DNA of 39,680 bases from the IMG/VR virus record IMGVR_UViG_650377934_000001; one strand, 5' to 3'. The position numbers and the translations under genes are program-made. This document shows positions 397-39,680 of this stretch, piece by piece. Origin of the DNA: a virus (taxonomy: Duplodnaviria; Heunggongvirae; Uroviricota; Caudoviricetes). Position 1 is the first letter of the stretch. Each line of letters opens with the position of its first letter. The notes below the pieces were generated by a model, which was not told the origin of the DNA, did no database searches, and was given only the letters and a program-made list of their open reading frames with translations.

Positions 397-435
397 AGTA
401 CTAAAACAGAGATGTATTTTCTTGCCGGATGCGGC
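397..435. repeat. Host intergenic REP/BIME-like palindromic unit, left part (interrupted by prophage)
   Basis: ...GCCGGATGCGGC at 424-435 continues across the prophage into GTAAACGCCTTATCCGGCCTAC at 37158-37179, forming a canonical REP-type imperfect palindrome. Confidence 0.6.
431..435. repeat. Target-site duplication, left copy (GCGGC)
   Basis: Identical pentamer GCGGC directly abuts both prophage termini (431-435 and 37153-37157). Confidence 0.9.
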
Positions 436-520
436 TGAAGCGGCGCACGAAAAACGCGAAAGCGTTTCACGATAAATGCGAAAACTTTAGCTTTCGCGCT
501 TCAAATGAAACAGATGTATT
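436..520. other. Mu right end (attR) with transposase-binding repeats
   Basis: TGAAGCGGCGCACGAAAAACGCGAAAGCGTTTCACGATAAATGCGAAAAC followed by an inverted GCTTTCGCG copy; repeated CGAAA(A/G) motifs as in the left end. Confidence 0.8.
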
Positions 521-550
521 AATTACTGCTTTTTATTCATTACATGGGGA

Positions 551-1276
551 TCACTTAGGGTATGGCTGAACCTTGAATAGTTTGGTATTTAGCCGCTTCC
601 TTGCTCGTTTGTTCAGGAATCTGATGTAGCGATACTGATTAAATTTGTGTACCACGGCACGCTCTTTATTAGCCCGTAAATACACGCCTCGTTGTCCACC
701 TCGCTTAATCGCGTTCATCGTTATCTCGTGATACCACTCACCATCCAGCTCGTAGAACGTACTTTCATGACTGCCAATAAAATCAAAATTCGACGCCTGA
801 TACACAACGCCTGCGCGTCCGCAGCGTTCATCTGCAAAGGACTGAACCCACTCCACTGACGGATACAGTAATCTGATAACTTTCAGCGCGTAGCTGATGG
901 CCCGTGATTCAGAGTTGCGGGGCATGTCGTCGTGTAGCCACATGCGGTTCAACTCCATATAGCCCCGGTTATCCGTTTCAAGCACGACACGACGACCTGA
1001 GTTGGGGTTAAGGGCATATCCCCACTGGAGAACGCCAACCAGATCGCGTCCGCTGAATACCCCCAGGTGAAGGTAAGAGTTATTCACAAAACGGCGGGAA
1101 TAGTGCTTTGTCTGAATAATTGTGCGGGCCAGCCAGCAGGATATGGTTTCAACGCGCAGCTCCTTTGAACCATAGCCAACAATCTGGCCTTCATACTCAA
1201 TAACGCACGGTTTCGTCAGAATGCGTGATTTTTTCTCTTTTCCCACAATGTTTCTCCGTGGGATGCTCGCAGGCAT
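551..1276 (-). CDS. mom: Mom DNA-modification protein (adenine modification, anti-restriction)
   Basis: 241-aa ORF; last gene before the right end; 5' end overlapped by com. Confidence 0.85.
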
Positions 1277-1385
1277 TCAGCATTATGATGTGACGTTTGC
1301 AACGCGGACACCTGATTTCAATGTGATCAAAGGAATCCGCCTTAAATAACAGTTTGTTGCAGTTTTTACAGCGAATTGATTTCAT
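1197..1385 (-). CDS. com: Com, zinc-finger translational activator of mom
   Basis: 62-aa ORF with CKNC...CPRC zinc ribbon; overlaps mom start by 80 nt; AAGGAGG Shine-Dalgarno just upstream. Confidence 0.85.
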
Positions 1386-1494
1386 CTCACCTCCTTTGCA
1401 TCAATTCGCCACTATCTTAAAAAACATCATGGGTTGAGTGTGGTTATTGGGGCATAATCGATCTGTATTACCGATCGATTTAATTGATTCGATC
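1386..1494 (-). promoter_or_regulatory. mom operon promoter/regulatory region with three clustered GATC (Dam) sites
   Basis: GATC at 1460-1463, 1473-1476 and 1491-1494 within 35 bp, upstream of com; the third lies in the last codons of gin. Confidence 0.7.
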
Positions 1495-2061
1495 GTCGTT
1501 TTCTATATGCGCTCGTTTCGCGGGGTGTTTTTTATACAGAGTTGACAGGGCCACATCGTAGATCAATGCAACCTGCTTGCGGGGGATTCCTTGTGCTAAT
1601 AAACGCCCGGCCTGCTCCCATTCCGCTTTGGTTAGTTTAGGTGGTCGCCCACCAATACGGCCTTTATTTCTGGCGGCAGCAAGTCCAGCCATCGTTCGCT
1701 CGATAATTAGTTCTCGTTCCATTTCAGCCAGGGCACCCATAACGTGGAAGAAAAAACGCCCCATTGGAGATGACGTATCAATACTGTCAGTAAGACTGCG
1801 AAAATTAATCCCTCGCTCTCGTAATTCCCCTACGAGAGAAATCAAATGTTTCATGCTTCGCCCGAGGCGATCCAGTTTCCAGACAACCAGTGTGTCACCT
1901 TTTTGAAGGCGCTTTAAAGCGCGTTTTAATCCCGGTCGGTCTGTCCTTGTTCCGCTTAATTTATCTTCAAATATTTGTTCACATCCTGCACAAACAAGAG
2001 CGTTTCGTTGCAGGTCTGTATTCTGGTCATTTGTTGATACCCTTACATAGCCAATCAGCAC
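1480..2061 (-). CDS. gin: Gin DNA invertase (serine recombinase)
   Basis: Resolvase-type N-terminus (L)IGYVRVSTNDQ with catalytic Ser, C-terminal HTH; probable GTG start at 2061 giving 193 aa (longest ORF extends to 2088); lies immediately outside the 34-bp inverted repeat. Confidence 0.9.
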   Translation of the reverse strand: MLIGYVRVSTNDQNTDLQRNALVCAGCEQIFEDKLSGTRTDRPGLKRALKRLQKGDTLVVWKLDRLGRSMKHLISLVGELRERGINFRSLTDSIDTSSPMGRFFFHVMGALAEMERELIIERTMAGLAAARNKGRIGGRPPKLTKAEWEQAGRLLAQGIPRKQVALIYDVALSTLYKKHPAKRAHIENDDRIN

Positions 2062-2115
2062 TCTGGATCTCCTGTTTAAAAGCGCCAATCATGCCATGCG
2101 TGCCAAAATCGACCA

Positions 2116-2149
2116 TTATCCAAAACCTCGGTTTACAGGAAACGGTAAA
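2116..2149. repeat. 34-bp inverted repeat (Gin recombination site) bounding the G segment, gin-proximal copy
   Basis: TTATCCAAAACCTCGGTTTACAGGAAACGGTAAA is the exact reverse complement of 5166-5199; identity stops on both sides. Confidence 0.9.
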
Positions 2150-3134
2150 CAGGGCTAGGAACGCCGTGCAAAAGAATGGCGATACCTTGTCCGGTGGGCT
2201 TACTTTTGAAAACGACTCAATCCTTGCCTGGATTCGAAATACTGACTGGGCAAAGATTGGATTTAAAAATGATGCCGACAGCGACACTGATTCATACATG
2301 TGGTTTGAAACAGGCGACAACGGCAATGAATATTTCAAATGGAGAAGCAAACAAAGCACCACAACAAAAGACCTGATGAATCTTAAATGGGATGCTTTGT
2401 CTGTTCTTGTCAATGCCATTGTAAATGGCGAAGTCATATCAAAATCAGCAAACGGCCTCCGTATTGCTTATGGTAATTACGGATTCTTTATTCGTAATGA
2501 TGGTTCAAATACATACTTCATGTTGACAAACTCCGGTGACAACATGGGGACTTATAACGGATTAAGGCCATTATGGATTAATAACGCTACTGGCGCTGTT
2601 TCGATGGGGCGTGGTCTTAATGTTTCAGGGGATACACTTTCAGACCGTTTTGCTATTAACAGCAGTAATGGTATGTGGATTCAGATGCGCGATAACAACG
2701 CTATCTTTGGGAAAAATATAGTTAACACTGATAGCGCTCAGGCGTTGCTTCGCCAGAATCACGCCGACCGCAAATTTATGATTGGCGGTCTGGGAAATAA
2801 GCAATTTGGCATCTACATGATTAATAACTCAAGGACAGCCAATGGCACCGATGGTCAGGCGTACATGGATAATAACGGAAACTGGTTATGCGGTGCTCAG
2901 GTCATTCCGGGAAATTACGCCAACTTTGACTCCCGCTACGTGCGTGACGTTCGGCTGGGAACTCAGTCACTGACTGGCGGCTTGTCTCGTGATTACAAGG
3001 CGCCATCCGGTCATGTTATTACAGGTTTTCATACCAATGGCGACTGGGAAATGCAGGGAGGGGATGACAAGGTTTATATCCGTCCGGTTCAGAAGAATAT
3101 CAACGGTACCTGGTATAATGTAGCGAGCGCCTGA
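2116..3134 (+). CDS. Silent alternative tail-fibre variable cassette (S' variable part), currently not fused to the constant S region
   Basis: Reading frame runs through the inverted repeat and encodes the same [11 protein letters not shown] junction peptide as S; the part of ORF 1890..3134 upstream of 2116 is antisense to gin and not genic. Confidence 0.75.
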
Positions 3135-3136
3135 TT

Positions 3137-3664
3137 ATGATGCATCTGAAAAACATTAAGTCAGAAAATCCAAAAACTAAAGAGCAATATCAGCTAACAA
3201 AGAATTTTGATGTTATCTGGTTATGGTCCGAAGACGGGAAAAACTGGTATGAAGAAGTAAATAACTTTCAGGACGACACCATAAAGATTGTATACGACGA
3301 AAATAATATTATTGTTGCCATAACCAAAGATGCCTCAACGCTTAATCCCGAAGGCTTTAGCGTCGTTGAGATTCCAGATATAACAGCCAACCGCCGCGCT
3401 GATGATTCAGGAAAGTGGATGTTTAAGGATGGAGCTGTAGTTAAACGGATTTATACGGCAGACGAACAGCAACAACAAGCCGAATCACAAAAGGCCGCAT
3501 TGCTTTCCGAAGCTGAATCAGTCATCCAGCCGCTGGAACGCGCTGTCAGGCTGAATATGGCGACGGATGAGGAACGCGCACGACTGGAGTCATGGGAACG
3601 CTACAGTGTTCTGGTCAGCCGTGTGGATACGGCAAATCCCGAATGGCCACAAAAGCCTGAATAA
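3137..3664 (+). CDS. Alternative tail-fibre assembly protein (U'), silent cassette
   Basis: 175-aa ORF, clear paralogue of U ([21 protein letters not shown]...DGKNWYEE shared N-terminus); convergent with U. Confidence 0.8.
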
Positions 3665-3669
3665 AAATT

Positions 3670-3689
3670 AAGGCCCGATAGCGGGCCTT
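3670..3689. terminator. Palindromic hairpin between the convergent U and U' stops (probable bidirectional terminator at the midpoint of the G segment)
   Basis: AAGGCCCG-ATAG-CGGGCCTT perfect 8-bp stem; followed by a T-run on the - strand (AATTTTTAT). Confidence 0.55.
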
Positions 3690-3692
3690 CTC

Positions 3693-4226
3693 TCATTCTG
3701 GTTGTTCTGGAAACGTTACTGGCAGGCTGGAGGTGTCTGTGGATTCGACCTTCTGCGCGTAGAGCATCCACTCTGTTAATTTTTGTTTATTCTCGTCGGA
3801 AATGATGCCCAGCCGTAGCTGTGAGTCCCATAGCTGTGTTTTATCCCTGACGAGCTGTAGCAGGCTTTGCTTTTCATTTTCCGCTTGTTGCCTCTGCTCT
3901 TCCTCGGTATAAGTTCGCTTTATCACTACACCATCTTTGAACATCCATTTACCCGAAATATCAGCCCGGCGATTTGCTGTAATATCAGGAACCTCAACGA
4001 CGTTTGCGCCTTCTGGATTAATTGCTGAAACATCCTTTTCAATACAAATAATAACGCCGTTGTGGTCATAGACCATTTTCAACGTATCAGGCTGAAAGTT
4101 CTTTTGTTCCTCATACCAGTTTTTCCCATCCTCTGTATAAAGCCATTTGATGTTAAATTGTTTCGTTAGCTGGTATTGCTCTTTTGTTTTAGGGTTGCCA
4201 GCAGTAATATTTTTTAAGTGCATCAT
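3693..4226 (-). CDS. U: Tail-fibre assembly protein U (expressed orientation)
   Basis: 177-aa ORF directly downstream of S on the late-operon strand; paralogue of U'. Confidence 0.8.
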   Translation of the reverse strand: MMHLKNITAGNPKTKEQYQLTKQFNIKWLYTEDGKNWYEEQKNFQPDTLKMVYDHNGVIICIEKDVSAINPEGANVVEVPDITANRRADISGKWMFKDGVVIKRTYTEEEQRQQAENEKQSLLQLVRDKTQLWDSQLRLGIISDENKQKLTEWMLYAQKVESTDTSSLPVTFPEQPE

Positions 4227-4228
4227 AA

Positions 4229-5695
4229 TTAAATACTCCCCGCGTTATACCACGTTCCATTAATGCAATACTGAATTGGCCTTGCCTGAGTTGTATCAAT
4301 TAATTCATCACGGTTTCCGTTAACTGAACCCGTAACGACATAACCTGACCTGTCAGACCAGCCGGGACCATTCCATGTCTGAACAGATGACAGACCGCCA
4401 AGACGAATACCTGTAATAAACCTTGAGTTACATTCTGCCTGCGTATATGCACCAACATCTCCCGCTGATGGCTTACGTGTTGTGGTGTAAATTTCTGACC
4501 AGTCAGCTTCGAATCCGTAACCATCACGCGCTGAACGATAAAAAATACCGCCGTTCCTGTAATTCACACGGAACTGTACGGCAGGGCAACTCCCCGTATT
4601 CATATTGAAGTGGAGGATTAATGTCGATGCGCCACCAATATTTGCGTTATAGACCCCGCTATTCCAGTTCCAGCCAACAGCTTTATCATTTCCGACAGTG
4701 CTTCCTGTTTGTCCTAAAGCAAATGCAGGCTGCTGGTTTTTCGTGTTGTAGTCTCGTCGCCAGCCAGGAGCATAAGCATCACCATGATTAATATAAGTGA
4801 ATTGAGCGTTAGTGATTCCGCCGCCGCTGGACGTACTCGGCGTAGTAACGCGTATGGTCATTGCGCCGCGAGTGCCAATAACTTCCACCACAGCACCTGC
4901 AAGACAAATATTTCCGCAACCTGTATCTGTAATGACCTTATTGTTTGCATAAGCCCATGAGCCTTTGCACATCCAGTAAGGATGGTTAAATGCCCCCTGA
5001 CTCTCCAGCCACGAAATAAATTGTGCGGTTGTCCAGACCTGACTATCGCCACCAATATTCAGCCATGCGCTATATGCGCGACAGGCCCCAATATTTTTGG
5101 TGAAGGTATCTTTTCCTGGAATATCTGCGCCGTTCTGGTTTTGCTGTAATGCGCCAGAAGCCTGATTTACCGTTTCCTGTAAACCGAGGTTTTGGATAAA
5201 CAGCGGCTTATTGGGAATATCTGCTCCGTTCCGGTCTTTTGCCAGACGGGCATTGGCATTATCCATTGCAATTTTCACCGCTTTTGCGGTGGCTGCCAGC
5301 GTTTCACTGGGGCTGTCAGTGGCACTGGTTAGCTGAACGAGTCCTTTTTTGTTCAGGCTGGCATCATAGATATCCAGATTTTCACGTGCTGTACGCTGTG
5401 CTGATGCCCCGGCAGTTTTAATTTCGCTGAGGTTATTTTTTATCAGCAGCGCGTTATTGCTCATAATGGCTTTAATGGACAGTGCAAGCTGGTTTAATTT
5501 TGTTTTATCCGGTTGAATACCGGCTTCTTCCAGCGTGTTTAATAACTCCGCCTGCACAATATTAAACCAGTCCATGCCGGGCCATGTGATAACATTATTC
5601 CCGTCACCTTCTGAAAACCAGCGAACGATAGCACTACGCTGGGCGGATACGGGCGGCATGACGGTTACGCCGCTGTCGTTATCAATATAAAACAT
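4229..5695 (-). CDS. S: Tail-fibre protein S (constant part 5200..5695 fused in-frame to the variable part inside the G segment)
   Basis: 488-aa ORF spanning the inverted repeat at 5166-5199; start overlaps the stop of the upstream baseplate gene (ATGA). Confidence 0.85.
   Translation of the reverse strand: MFYIDNDSGVTVMPPVSAQRSAIVRWFSEGDGNNVITWPGMDWFNIVQAELLNTLEEAGIQPDKTKLNQLALSIKAIMSNNALLIKNNLSEIKTAGASAQRTARENLDIYDASLNKKGLVQLTSATDSPSETLAATAKAVKIAMDNANARLAKDRNGADIPNKPLFIQNLGLQETVNQASGALQQNQNGADIPGKDTFTKNIGACRAYSAWLNIGGDSQVWTTAQFISWLESQGAFNHPYWMCKGSWAYANNKVITDTGCGNICLAGAVVEVIGTRGAMTIRVTTPSTSSGGGITNAQFTYINHGDAYAPGWRRDYNTKNQQPAFALGQTGSTVGNDKAVGWNWNSGVYNANIGGASTLILHFNMNTGSCPAVQFRVNYRNGGIFYRSARDGYGFEADWSEIYTTTRKPSAGDVGAYTQAECNSRFITGIRLGGLSSVQTWNGPGWSDRSGYVVTGSVNGNRDELIDTTQARPIQYCINGTWYNAGSI
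5166..5199. repeat. 34-bp inverted repeat (Gin recombination site) bounding the G segment, S-proximal copy, inside the S coding sequence
   Basis: TTTACCGTTTCCTGTAAACCGAGGTTTTGGATAA = reverse complement of 2116-2149. Confidence 0.9.
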
Positions 5696-9465: not shown

Positions 9466-10945
9466 TAATCACCTCAATACTGACACCACCGGGAACAAAT
9501 AACGGGTTGCTGATACCGTTCCTGCGGGCCAGCCGTTGCCAGTTCCGGCTGTTTCCGGTGAACCGGTACAGTGCAACCATTGCCGGGAGCGTTTCTGGCA
9601 GGTGGTGTGATTCACTACCCGCCAGTTGCAGCCCGCGTTTTTCCAGGTCGGCAACAACCAGCAGACGCAGTTGCGTAAGCTGAACACTGTCTGTCGAAAA
9701 ACCCTGCTCAGATGCCGTCAGAATGACGCTATCCAGCGCCGCCCCCAGCATGGCAGTGGTTTTTTCGATATCGGACACACTTTCAAATACCGGGGGCGTG
9801 GCTGTACCACTGTCTGAAAAGGATACCTGTGAAAAGCCGCCGTCCGGGGTTATGGCAGTTAACTGTAACTGTCCCTGTGTGACGGTAGCAGATGTGCTGC
9901 TGGCCCCGCTGGCTGTGCCGGTTGTGGTGGACGGGGCATCCAGTACAGGTGCACGGGCGGCATTATCCATCCGGCGACTGAAATCCAGTGCCGCAGTCAG
10001 TGCCTGGCTGGCAGCTTCTGCCCGGTATGTCTGCGCCGCTGCCAGCATGACGTAGTTCAGTGTGGCAATATTTTTTTCTGCAACCGGACTGTTGTACGAG
10101 GTTGTGATTGTCCCCTGTCTGCCTGCGGTGGCGGCATGGCGACGTTCGAATCGCTGCGCCAGACGGTTCCATGTGGAAAATGCTGTCCGGGTATCGCATA
10201 ACGATGAAACGCCGGACAGCGCCCCCATCAGCGAGGAGGCCAGCATGGCAGGCTGGTTAATCAGGCTGGTCACAGAGCCTTTCATCGCAGAAAGCGATCC
10301 CATCAGACCGCTGACAGTCTGCGTAACCCCCAGATTGTCCACCGCATCACTGATATCATCGATGACACCGGTTACAGCTTCCATCACGGCGGTTGCCGCC
10401 GCAGTGCCATCTTTTACGGTTTGCCAGACAGAGGACAGCGTATCTCCCAGAGAACCGGTTACAGCAACGGCCTGTGCCGGTACGGCTGCACTGGTGTCTG
10501 TCTCTGCGTCCGGGGCAGTATCCTGCAACGACGGATAAACGGTAACGGTGAACGCGTAATAATTCAGTTCATCCGCTTTAGTGCGGCATTCCCATGAATC
10601 CACCATGACGTCCACAGTGCCGAAATCAGGATGTACCAGCTCACCGCTACCCGGAGCATCAAGAGCATCCATCAGCGCACCCGCTTCATCTCTGGCTGTT
10701 TCTGCGTTGCTGTTCAGAATGCAGGCGCTGAATGTACGGGAGCGAAGCTTTTTCCCCAGGTCATTGACGCCGCCGGTATCACGTAACGGGTACTCGCGTT
10801 TAACCAGGCGACGTCCGCCAGCCTGTTTTTGCTCCTCGATGACGAGAAACGGCACGTTACGGAACGTGCCTTTGCCGGTTGTTTTCCTGCCTCCACCGGT
10901 TTTATCCCGGACAGCATTAACGGCATTTAAAGCATCTTCAAACAT
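9458..10945 (-). CDS. DNA circularisation protein (Mu gp43-like)
   Basis: 495-aa ORF immediately downstream of the tape measure gene. Confidence 0.65.
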
Positions 10946-26767: not shown

Positions 26768-27190
26768 TTATTTTGGGGTTTCAGGTGAGAACAGATCAGG
26801 CTGATGACGTCGTGTATGCAGCTTTCTCTGGCGGGCAATAATCTGGTAGATCTGCGGCTGGGACAGGCGGTACTGGCGACGCAGTTCTTCCATGTTACGA
26901 CCATTAAACTGGCAGTAAAGCAAATCGTCGCGTAACGCGGTCAGGATCGTATCGCCGCAGGGGATGTAAAACTGCCGTCCACCCAGAAAACAGGACAGGG
27001 CAACGGCCTGTTTACGGGCAAGTTCACGGGGATTGCTGACGTTCTGGCGTTTCAGTTCGTTTTCCAGAACATCAATCAGATCAACCACCGAACGGGGCCA
27101 GCGTGATTCCAGTTCCGGGGCCGGGATGTTATCAATATGTCCGATTAACTGGCGAATTGCCGGATCGTGTTCAAATAAATCATGCTGCAT
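26768..27190 (-). CDS. C: Late transcription activator C (Mor/C family)
   Basis: 140-aa ORF; shares the GG.Q.YIP.G...FNGRN...EL block with Mor. Confidence 0.9.
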   Translation of the reverse strand: MQHDLFEHDPAIRQLIGHIDNIPAPELESRWPRSVVDLIDVLENELKRQNVSNPRELARKQAVALSCFLGGRQFYIPCGDTILTALRDDLLYCQFNGRNMEELRRQYRLSQPQIYQIIARQRKLHTRRHQPDLFSPETPK

Positions 27191-37152: not shown

Positions 37153-37157
37153 GCGGC
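37153..37157. repeat. Target-site duplication, right copy (GCGGC)
   Basis: Identical to 431-435. Confidence 0.9.
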
Positions 37158-37235
37158 GTAAACGCCTTATCCGGCCTACAGGACGTGATCGATCCGTAGG
37201 CCTGATAAGCGAAGCGCATCAGGCAGTTGCGCGGT
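37153..37235. repeat. Host intergenic REP/BIME-like palindromic unit, right part
   Basis: GCGGCGTAAACGCCTTATCCGGCCTAC followed by its inverted partner GTAGGCCTGATAAGCGAAGCGCATCAGGC. Confidence 0.65.
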
Positions 37236-39680
37236 TTACCCCAGCGCCTCCACAATCACAATCGCCGCCCGTTCTCCCGCCTTGCCATCCATAAACGCAT
37301 CGCAATAGTGATGGCGAATCTCCGTAAGCCGCGCCTGCACCGACCCCCAGTCAAACGCCTCTGACAATAAGTAACGCAGTTCCGCAACCTCATGAGCCAC
37401 CGGCAATATTTCGCGAATCCGCTGGTCGGCGCTCTCCGGCGTGGAATAACTTTTCTCACCGTCGAGCAGTTCCGTCATGCCCGGGAAGTCGAGCAGGATC
37501 ACCCGTTTATCAACGTGGATCGCATCGAAAATAAACCCACTGTTATCGGTGAGCACGTAATCGGCCTTTGCCAGTAGCGCCAGCGTGTGGCGGGCGGAGT
37601 CGGTGAGCTGTTTTAAGTGCCTGCGCGCCAGGGCCAGCGATGCAGCTTCTTGCGGGCGCGAGCTGGTGCCGTGGTGCAGTTTGCAAATCAGGTTCACATC
37701 ACCGCTTAAGCGGCCCAATTTTTCTGCCCAGTGGGGCAGGGAGCTTAATGCGCCAAACGTGGGGGCGTAGAGCACCGTAGGTTTACAGGAATCGGGTTGA
37801 ATATTTTCCGGCAGAGCGCGGTCGAACGTGCCGTTATGCCAGGCGTCGAAGCGCGGGTTGCCAACCACTTTTGCATTGCCGAAATGTTCCAGCGCCCGCT
37901 GGCTGTAGTGGCTGTAACACAAAATACGCTGATAAAAACGGTTCCAGTCTGCATGGTTCCACGTCTCTTTAGCTAAGCCGTACATGGCGCGGATGTTCAC
38001 GGGTGAAAGGCCATTGAGCGCAGGCGTGTGGTAGGGGCTGACCAGGCATTTCACCCGCTGACTATGTGCCTGCATCTCAGACAAGCGCATACCTTTAAGC
38101 TGCGGATCGTCGATGTTTTTCAGTGTTTCCAGCATCTCATCAAGAAACGGTTTAAACACGCGGTCATTGATCACTAGTGTGCAGCTCTTCCCCTGCGCCT
38201 GTAGAGCGGTGATGATTGGACGATACAGCGCGTAGTGGAATGAGGTTTCCATAAAAAAGCCGATGGTGTCGGCGATGGGTAATGCGGATGGCTTTGTGGA
38301 TACAGGTAACTTATTGAAATAGTGACTAATGTTGTCGGTCACTTTTTTCTCGATATCGCTAAAGCCCGGTCGCTGGTAACAAAGGCTCGGGTAACAGGCC
38401 AGCCATTTGTCGGCGCGTAGCAGCGGCTGCCAGACGTCTTCCAGCGAGTGCTCATCGTTGCTCAACTGCTGCGCCAGTTGCGGGTAGTAGCGGCTGTTCA
38501 CCAGATAAGCGCACACTTTGCGGCAGTCCCGCGCGTGCACCAGCCCCGGCAAACTTTTTAGCATCGTTCCCTGCGAAATTTCGCCGCCGAGGATCATCAC
38601 CTGCCAGGGAATTTTCGCCAGGCTCGCCAGCAGCGTGTTCAGCACCTGAATATGTTTTTCCTGCTTGAGAATAACCGCGTCATCTTCCAGCAACAGGTAA
38701 TTTTGCCAGCCATGCTGTTGCGCCAGTCGCAGCGCCTGCAAGTGCGACAGGCGGCGGCCCCGTTGACCGTTTTCATCTTCACAGGCGGCAAGGCGGGTGA
38801 TCTTCTCGGGTGGAATATGCAGCAATGCCAGTTCTTCACGGATCTGTTGTAAGCGATCCGGGCGTTTATCCAGATTCACGACGACCACCTGATCGATCGC
38901 CTGATGGTTGATCGCCTGGTGATGAGTGGCGTTATGCAGACTCAGATAAGCATTGCGCAGCAGCGGATCGCGGACGATATCCGTAAGCGCCGTGTTTACT
39001 GGCGTGCTGGCCCCGATAATAAAGTCTTTATCAAAGGTGTTGTGGCTATGCGAGATACACAAAATCGTGCGCTCGCCGGGCAGTTGCAGCGGGTTAACGC
39101 TGAAATTGTCGGTGAAACTTTTCTCTTCGCCTAAATTGCAATCATCGTCGTAACGGTGCTTTTTCAGGTAGTTACGGTGATAGCAAAAGGTGCCGTTGAG
39201 GATATTATGTGGGCCAAAGCTGCGGCTTTGAAAGATACGGTTGATATGGCTGTACCAGATGGGGATCTGGTCGGAACCGGAGATGAGCGCCCGGTGTTTT
39301 TGCATCATAGCGATGGTGTAAGAGATTTTATCTGCCGGATAGTAGTCGTCATCATCCATGCAGAGGATGTATTCGCCGCGCGCCAGTTCGTTGAGCATGT
39401 TGCGTTTTTTGCCCAGCGGCAGTTTTTCCGGGTGATGGATGTAGCGGATGTTAAAGGCTTCCGGCGTGCCATTGGTCAGGCGGTCGATGATGTGTTGATG
39501 GCTTTGTGGGGAATCGTCGAGGATGATGAGTTCGCGGCGGTCTGCCGGGTAATCCTGATAGCGGTACATATAGAGCAGGTACGGCAGGAATGCGCCGCGG
39601 TTCCAGGTTGGCGTGACGACGCTGACAAACGGTTTTTCGCGGTGGGTGGCGAGTGTTTTGATGATGGTTGGTGTTGGCAT
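37236..39680 (-). CDS. Three-domain polysaccharide biosynthesis enzyme: N-terminal GT2-like glycosyltransferase, central GT25-like domain, C-terminal CDP-glycerol glycerophosphotransferase (TagB/TagF-like); host gene
   Basis: 814-aa ORF ending at the window edge; DxD-type CMDDDDYY in the first domain; VVVVNLDKRPDRL start of the middle domain; LYAPTFG and DYVLTDNSGFIFDAIHVDKRVILL motifs in the C-terminal domain. Confidence 0.65.
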   Translation of the reverse strand: MPTPTIIKTLATHREKPFVSVVTPTWNRGAFLPYLLYMYRYQDYPADRRELIILDDSPQSHQHIIDRLTNGTPEAFNIRYIHHPEKLPLGKKRNMLNELARGEYILCMDDDDYYPADKISYTIAMMQKHRALISGSDQIPIWYSHINRIFQSRSFGPHNILNGTFCYHRNYLKKHRYDDDCNLGEEKSFTDNFSVNPLQLPGERTILCISHSHNTFDKDFIIGASTPVNTALTDIVRDPLLRNAYLSLHNATHHQAINHQAIDQVVVVNLDKRPDRLQQIREELALLHIPPEKITRLAACEDENGQRGRRLSHLQALRLAQQHGWQNYLLLEDDAVILKQEKHIQVLNTLLASLAKIPWQVMILGGEISQGTMLKSLPGLVHARDCRKVCAYLVNSRYYPQLAQQLSNDEHSLEDVWQPLLRADKWLACYPSLCYQRPGFSDIEKKVTDNISHYFNKLPVSTKPSALPIADTIGFFMETSFHYALYRPIITALQAQGKSCTLVINDRVFKPFLDEMLETLKNIDDPQLKGMRLSEMQAHSQRVKCLVSPYHTPALNGLSPVNIRAMYGLAKETWNHADWNRFYQRILCYSHYSQRALEHFGNAKVVGNPRFDAWHNGTFDRALPENIQPDSCKPTVLYAPTFGALSSLPHWAEKLGRLSGDVNLICKLHHGTSSRPQEAASLALARRHLKQLTDSARHTLALLAKADYVLTDNSGFIFDAIHVDKRVILLDFPGMTELLDGEKSYSTPESADQRIREILPVAHEVAELRYLLSEAFDWGSVQARLTEIRHHYCDAFMDGKAGERAAIVIVEALG

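Follow-up and report, generated by a model that had tools for sequence, protein, structure and literature searches.

The intact com-mom operon at the right end of a full-length Mu prophage of the Escherichia coli W lineage

The region studied here is the mom operon of phage Mu, located at the right end of a full-length prophage of the E. coli W lineage, the one named 'WMu' in the E. coli W genome paper (PMC3032704), and we put the probability that this is so and that the operon works as published at about 97%. It lies in a window (the whole stretch of DNA that was analysed) of 39,680 nucleotides from the virus record IMGVR_UViG_650377934_000001, and the com and mom genes together with three upstream GATC sites occupy positions 551 to 1494. 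The operon is real, intact and ordinary, and it is already known as the reference Mu mom operon. As a classic, thoroughly dissected phage regulatory region present in its reference form, it has little discovery value. Its practical meaning is that E. coli W and its industrial derivatives, i.e., lactate and ethanol strains of the KO11/SL/HBUT type, harbour a wild-type Mu that is complete and whose anti-restriction function is intact.

Alignment of the whole window to the Mu record places a complete prophage of 36,717 bp at 436-37152 on the minus strand. The right (mom) end corresponds to position 436 and the left (c) end to 37152, and both are identical to AF083977. A 5-bp target duplication, GCGGC, flanks the prophage at 431-435 and 37153-37157, and a REP-like palindrome is split by the insertion. 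When window 400-2100 was searched with megablast against the phage collection, positions 436-2100 aligned to Mu 36717-35053 with 100% identity (AF083977/NC_000929). A sequence-only reading of the region had proposed a comparison with the Mu mom regulatory region; made here, the comparison leaves the module without any difference from Mu (Muvirus mu; Mu_52 com, Mu_53 mom and Pmom) in genes, promoter, GATC sites, C site and hairpins, and the GATC positions align with the known Mu regulatory sites. Other phages are slightly more distant. D108, SfMu, several Yersinia vB_YpM phages and Mu_3F6 have 96.5-97.8% DNA identity to the window over mom, com and gin (megablast), and modules of the D108/SfMu/vB_YpM type are set apart from it by a few substitutions. 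The flanks and junctions of the prophage belong to the E. coli W lineage, where strain B-766 is collinear with the entire window except for the orientation of the G segment. Strain hubt-sl differs by a chromosomal rearrangement next to the c end of its Mu, with an IS10 and a truncated frdA.

The mom gene lies on the minus strand and is annotated in two forms, as 551-1276 (241 aa, ATG at 1276) in RefSeq and as 551-1246 (231 aa, GTG at 1246) in GenBank. The start codon is thus inconsistent between the two databases. It is also ambiguous in itself: the GTG is accompanied by a Shine-Dalgarno sequence, and the ATG, on which RefSeq and the numbering of the 2026 structural paper are based, is without one. 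The protein matches the Pfam family Mom (PF25680) with 253.1 bits at a cut-off of 27.1, covering the profile completely (1-202 of 202), and has no match among the NCBIfam models. It is also found in the PDB as 8BV8 (E = 1e-158), the Delta10 S124A crystal construct of Mom, to which residues 11-241 are identical save for the engineered S124A; Mom with the Delta10 truncation is still active (PMC13219725). R111, S124, D149 and R151 as well as H58, Y59, W48, Y159 and W181 are described as essential or important for activity (PMC13219725), and all of these are present here, as is Y28 (241-aa numbering).

Mom is a dimeric GNAT-fold enzyme which moves glycine from Gly-tRNA(Gly) to the N6 of adenine in dsDNA (Silva et al. 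2026, PMC13219725). An on-base rearrangement then yields N6-carbamoylmethyl-dA (6-NcmdA), and the formation of 6-NcmdA on dsDNA has been demonstrated for the identical protein. About 15-25% of the adenines are modified, in the loose context SASNY, and the modification shields DNA against restriction (PMC13219725). The modified adenines of the sequence-only reading can therefore be specified as N6-carbamoylmethyl-adenine made from Gly-tRNA(Gly) (PMC13219725), and the RefSeq product name of Mom already matches this Gly-tRNA(Gly)-dependent aminoacyltransferase chemistry. FemX (4II9) and TacT (7F36) resemble Mom in having the GNAT fold and in using or recognising an aminoacyl-tRNA CCA end. However, only in Mom does the glycine go to the N6 of a DNA adenine, and FemX and TacT are without the HTH-like insertion that Mom carries at about residues 175-209 (PMC13219725).

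The com gene (1197-1385, minus strand, 62 aa) is directly upstream of mom, and its 3' part overlaps the mom start over 1197-1246 (50 nt, GTG form) or up to 1276 (80 nt, ATG form). The open reading frames agree with the GenBank and RefSeq annotation on this arrangement, which had been read earlier as overlapping com and mom genes preceded by GATC sites. The description of Com as a zinc-ribbon translational activator also holds. Com matches Pfam Zn_ribbon_Com (PF10122) with 36.8 bits at a cut-off of 22.9, contains two CxxC pairs, C6/C9 and C26/C29, and is listed in GenBank as 'translational activator Com', in line with the literature. An alignment of 14 relatives shows that C39 varies, which is consistent with C6, C9, C26 and C29 as the zinc ligands. 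A search of the PDB gave no structure of Com. RefSeq labels the protein 'DNA-binding transcriptional regulator', in contrast to the literature, where it is an mRNA-binding translational activator.

RNA folding and the alignment of 14 relatives delimit a putative translation-control RNA for mom at 1241-1276 (minus strand), consisting of two predicted hairpins at the mom start. A small one, AUGC-CUGCGA-GCAU at 1276-1263, stands ahead of a second at 1263-1241, which was predicted by MFE and centroid folding alike and encloses the GGAG Shine-Dalgarno sequence (1257-1254) as well as the GUG start codon (1246-1244). The stems of both hairpins and the Shine-Dalgarno sequence are unchanged in the 14 relatives; the variation is in the loops, including a 6-nt insertion in one relative. 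Invariant stems with variable loops would fit a constraint on RNA structure at this position. Compensatory base changes or covariation were sought in the 14 relatives and none were found, and the energy of the fold is unremarkable (z = -1.18), so the case for the RNA element comes from the published Com-mRNA experiments. The binding of Com at this RNA is described in literature that PMC3378877 cites.

The transcription start of mom was placed by aligning a published 78-mer to the window. The 78-bp Ptin7 fragment spans -58 to +20 (PMC3378877), and the sequence of the 78-mer Pmom/tin7 oligonucleotide is printed in PMC4461284. This gives +1 at 1407 and a Pmom core promoter at 1407-1444, both on the minus strand, with a -10 element TAAGAT at 1419-1414 (-12 to -7) and a -35 element ACCACA at 1444-1439 (-37 to -32). 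The spacer between them is 19 bp long and has a run of six Ts (1424-1419). In GenBank, the promoter feature corresponds to window 1394-1460. A consensus scan of 400-2200 detected no sigma-70 consensus promoter, as is expected for a weak, activator-dependent promoter.

The core dyad of the C activator site, TTATGCCCCAATAA, is at 1444-1457 (-50 to -37, minus strand), identical to Mu and also contained in the published Pmom/tin7 oligonucleotide. The footprint of C at Pmom reportedly extends from about -57 to -28. The late transcription activator C, which acts in trans at Pmom, is encoded at 26768-27190 on the minus strand (Mu 9963-10385) and is identical to the reference; its RefSeq name is 'Mor transcription activator family protein'. 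With a poor -35 element, an over-long spacer, an upstream C dyad and a cognate C gene, Pmom has the traits of a C-dependent late promoter of Mu. The published network around it consists of Dam, OxyR, C, Com, a divergent promoter momP2 and Fis, the last with sites at -123, -98, -49, -38 and +3 (PMC3378877).

Further upstream, three GATC sites starting at 1460, 1473 and 1491 had been noted within 35 bp, and they are located at just these positions. GATC I is at 1491-1494 (-87 to -84), GATC II at 1473-1476 (-69 to -66) and GATC III at 1460-1463 (-56 to -53), spanning 35 bp together. Of the three Dam sites, GATC III is nearest to the promoter and borders the C site on its upstream side. GATC I and II are each part of a PvuI site, CGATCG, and the 18 bp between these two sites agree with the 18-bp PvuI fragment reported for Pmom (PMC3378877). 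The 3' end of gin, the G-segment invertase gene (1480-2061, minus strand; Pfam Resolvase and HTH_7), overlaps the mom operator. Its stop codon is at 1480-1482 (-75 to -73), and GATC I falls within the last gin codons, so the distal site is not intergenic.

The same stretch resembles an OxyR operator. Positions 1461-1497 match 13 of the 20 specified positions of the OxyR tetramer consensus ATAGnTnnnAnCTAT-N7-ATAGnTnnnAnCTAT, which is tied best among about 39,600 window positions, and this match takes in GATC I, GATC II and three of the four bases of GATC III (1461-1463). Two more overlapping registers, at 1452 and 1470, match 12 of 20 positions each. The OxyR-C199S footprint at Pmom is said to reach from -104 to -46.

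For the same sequence, it has been published that Dam and OxyR act on Pmom via the three upstream GATCs, that the promoter depends on C, and that Com activates translation (PMC3378877, PMC2909390). OxyR control of Pmom goes back to Sun & Hattman 1996 as cited in PMC7549136, and methylation-sensitive OxyR binding with dam-dependent expression to Bolker & Kahmann 1989, Sun & Hattman 1996 and Hattman & Sun 1997, as cited in PMC3378877 and PMC7549136. By identity of sequence, the earlier proposal that mom expression depends on a host repressor, on Dam methylation and on C would apply to this prophage (PMC3378877, PMC2909390, PMC7549136). It can be refined in that the host repressor is OxyR, with Fis as an additional repressor.

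The operon very probably works as follows. Here, sequence identity, intact reading frames and catalytic residues, site positions and the conservation of the GATCs come from our own analysis, and the binding of OxyR, C, Fis and Com as well as the chemistry from literature on the same sequence. Transcription would start at 1407 on the minus strand from a weak promoter that should fire only when C occupies the dyad at about -50 to -37. The three GATCs (-87 to -53) would sit within the OxyR operator, so that methylation by Dam excludes OxyR, whereas sites that lack methylation, or to some extent those methylated on one strand, let it bind and repress; Fis would add further repression. Com, with its four-cysteine zinc ribbon, is then expected to bind the mRNA just 5' of the hairpin that hides the Shine-Dalgarno sequence and start of mom, opening translation. 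The Mom dimer would transfer glycine from Gly-tRNA(Gly) to the adenine N6 of dsDNA, where it would rearrange to N6-carbamoylmethyl-adenine, and the modification would guard packaged Mu DNA against many restriction enzymes.

This type of control is shared with several other switches. In agn43 (Ag43) of E. coli, gtr of the Salmonella phage P22 and opvAB, Dam methylation of operator GATCs blocks repression by OxyR, as in mom (PMC2909390). These three control cellular or lysogenic-conversion genes by heritable phase variation, which mom is not known to undergo (PMC2909390). Moreover, the mom switch, unlike that of agn43, gtr and opvAB, sits beneath the phage activator C and the translational activator Com.

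It could nevertheless be speculated that in dam+ cells the GATC/OxyR region acts more as a replication-coupled, heritable bistable switch of the agn43 type, by which mom would be on in a subpopulation of induced cells. The architecture is that of agn43, with three GATCs in a single OxyR operator, and the hemimethylated promoter is reportedly bindable by OxyR, going by the title of Hattman & Sun 1997. However, the transpositional replication of Mu falls late in infection, at a time of abundant C, and in the published network mom expression is mainly limited by C and Com (PMC3378877). The sequence fits both modes, and we consider the bistable switch unlikely.

Activity of the published operon in this lysogen also depends on the prophage itself. 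Compared with the Mu reference, the prophage has three substitutions, and com, mom, the promoter and the activator gene C are all free of them. One changes residue 47 of the c repressor, which is R here and Q in the reference; the major capsid gene and a baseplate gene carry one synonymous change each. The only further departure is the G segment (about 2116-5199), which is in the opposite orientation to the Mu reference. No loss-of-function mutation is therefore present in mom or com, and the claim that the module is intact is borne out, as its catalytic residues, the Pfam Mom match and the identity of C to the reference also indicate.

An intact module could still be silent if the prophage were defective or not inducible, so that modified virions are never made. 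With R47 in its repressor, where the sequenced reference has the thermo-inducible Q47, the prophage would not be induced by heat, and the E. coli W genome paper reports nothing of interest on its prophages (PMC3032704). On the other hand, the prophage spans the whole Mu genome, has both ends and the target duplication, and departs from the reference by a single amino acid, in c, besides the two synonymous changes. The late genes and C are all identical to those of a phage of known viability. In addition, both orientations of the G segment occur in assemblies of the W lineage, a sign that Gin is active. A silent prophage is for these reasons quite improbable. We infer that this lysogen is dam+ and inducible, as modification needs both induction and a dam+ host; the host genes dam and oxyR lie outside the window. 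Given these two, virions with modified adenines that resist restriction, as the sequence-only reading expected, would be produced, as the identity to Mu suggests.

The density of the GATC sites is by itself weak evidence for a function. GATC is depleted in the window, with 88 sites observed against 142 +/- 11 expected from a count shuffle. The prophage holds 72 of them, and the mom triplet is the sole triplet within 35 bp in the prophage. Yet when 72 sites were scattered at random over 36.7 kb, 10.6% of the trials contained one or more triplets this tight, so that the density is not significant (p about 0.11). The cluster is instead meaningful because of its identity to the characterised Mu region, its conservation and the match to the OxyR consensus.

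Conservation was examined in 44 com-mom loci, which gave 33 distinct 300-nt upstream sequences. The loci are mostly from viral contigs; a scan of genome contigs with Mom gave three of them. Most of the set consists of close relatives (85-100% Mom identity), and the yardstick for conservation was therefore the much more diverged non-coding sequence on either side, whose columns around the GATCs are conserved at about 40-60% only. GATC II is present in all 33 distinct sequences and GATC I in 32, with the I-II spacing of 18 bp also kept in 32 of 33. GATC III is found in 17 of 33, each time 13 bp from site II. All three sites, with spacings of 18 and 13 bp, are present in the modules of D108, SfMu, the Yersinia vB_YpM phages and Mu-like E. 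coli prophages. The GATCs at 1561 and 1325, which are within coding regions, are kept within the Mu lineage only. A purely accidental clustering of the three sites, or their origin as a side effect of the gin 3' coding end and two PvuI palindromes, with no regulatory role in either case, has a negligible probability: random placement does yield triplets and GATC I does fall in gin coding sequence, but sites I and II keep their spacing against far less conserved flanks even in lineages without gin, the nearby coding GATCs are not preserved outside the Mu lineage, and genetics and footprinting have been published for the identical sequence (PMC3378877, PMC2909390, PMC7549136).

The comparison also reveals a Mu-like lineage without gin (L028-L044), in which only the distal sites, GATC I and II, are retained and both the core promoter and the activator site are different. 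In 15 sequences of this lineage, the position of GATC III reads CATC. These relatives become homologous to Mu from about -105 to -111 onwards, near where the upstream edge of the OxyR footprint reportedly lies, and this suggests that the operator travels with the com-mom cassette. An alternative assignment of the lineage to lambdoid prophages, considered for the RusA-like and Q-like reading frames downstream of mom in one member (L038), was rejected, as another (L043) has a Mu right-end motif at the Mu offset and most members are proviruses of about 35 kb that end at mom.

From this pattern, the sole mildly new point of the analysis may be drawn, and it is a comparative one: the distal GATC pair appears to form an operator core that stays constant from one com-mom cassette to another, and the C-proximal GATC appears to be lineage-specific. 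We suggest, tentatively and with more doubt than confidence, that the Dam/OxyR operator belongs to the cassette ancestrally and has been inherited together with it, with two distal GATCs 18 bp apart as its core, and that GATC III, next to the C site, was added in particular lineages and links the occupancy by OxyR to the binding of C. If this were true, the minimal switch would consist of two GATCs and not three, and variants with two sites are predicted to be still dam-dependent.

Mu-like proviruses that carry com and mom without gin and without a G segment (IMG/VR loci L028-L044) have the gene order tail-fibre assembly gene, then com-mom. About 80-100 nt upstream of com they keep only the two distal GATCs, which correspond to 1473 and 1491 of the window (GACGATCGATAnCATCATATCGATCGTCG), while the third site reads CATC in place of GATC. 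The core promoter and the activator site in these loci are unrelated to their Mu counterparts; Mom, however, is still 92-97% identical to that of Mu.

Over the whole window, GATC is rarer than expected, with 88 sites observed against 142 +/- 11 in dinucleotide-preserving shuffles, and all 100 of 100 shuffles contained at least 88. The 36.7 kb prophage accounts for only 72 of the sites. A denser group than the one at mom lies in the host glycosyltransferase ORF, where seven GATCs fall within 170 bp (38799-38966), including a triplet at 38891, 38895 and 38910. These sites are located within coding sequence that includes a short internal repeat (HQAINHQAIDQ), and the cluster from 38799 to 38966 gave no sign of regulation. 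GATC triplets as dense as that of mom can thus arise without a known function.

Of 5,426 complete E. coli genomes, only 42 contain the Mu-type regulatory region of the mom promoter (window 1380-1520); the Mu-carrying laboratory strains S17-1 and ST18 are among them. A Mom homologue with 52% identity is present in a high-GC alphaproteobacterial contig from a Magnetospira sp. MAG (L006, positions 1-880 of JANQIL010000081.1). Its gene is preceded and overlapped by an ORF with a Com-like CxxC...CPRC zinc ribbon, and the visible contig stops short of the promoter. Judged from this overlapping arrangement, the com-mom pairing reaches well beyond enterobacteria. A methylation-sensitive operator at this locus, if present, would be of the GANTC/CcrM type rather than GATC/Dam.

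The database annotation of both genes differs between sources. RefSeq labels Com (1197-1385) as a "Com family DNA-binding transcriptional regulator", whereas in the literature the protein is a translational activator that binds mRNA. The start of mom (551-1276) is discordant, as GenBank uses a GTG at 1246 with a GGAG Shine-Dalgarno sequence, while RefSeq uses an ATG at 1276 that lacks one.

The invertible G segment (about 2116-5199) is in the opposite orientation to that of the Mu reference AF083977, so that S'/U' are the tail-fibre genes linked to the constant part. The W-lineage assemblies B-766, SL112 and HBUT-L carry the other orientation than the window and match it in two pieces at 88% coverage. 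From the presence of both orientations, the segment is flipping within the W lineage, which implies an active Gin invertase.

In the c repressor, codon 47 (window 36363, Mu coordinate 790) is CGA (R47) in the prophage versus CAA (Q47) in AF083977. R47Q would be the thermo-inducible cts62 allele of the laboratory phage; in that case the repressor of this natural E. coli W prophage is the wild type, and heat would not induce the prophage.

Mu is bounded by a 5-bp target duplication, GCGGC (431-435 and 37153-37157). Once Mu is taken out, the flanks (400-435 and 37153-37230) form a perfect REP-like palindrome (GCCGGATGCGGCGTAAACGCCTTATCCGGC). The palindrome is bordered on one side by a cytidylyltransferase-like gene (1-396), where the Flag-2 lateral-flagella cluster ends, and on the other by the gene of a large glycosyltransferase of family 2, encoded on the minus strand (37236-39680). 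In the engineered W derivative hubt-sl (NZ_CP104206.1, 3638000-3643200; locus L050), the Mu c end instead adjoins a transposase of the IS10 type (ISVsa5) together with a truncated frdA; the native glycosyltransferase is missing from this end, and the native junction lies 0.56 Mb away. These neighbours and the distant junction indicate that the hubt-sl chromosome has been rearranged, with one breakpoint at or beside the Mu left end.
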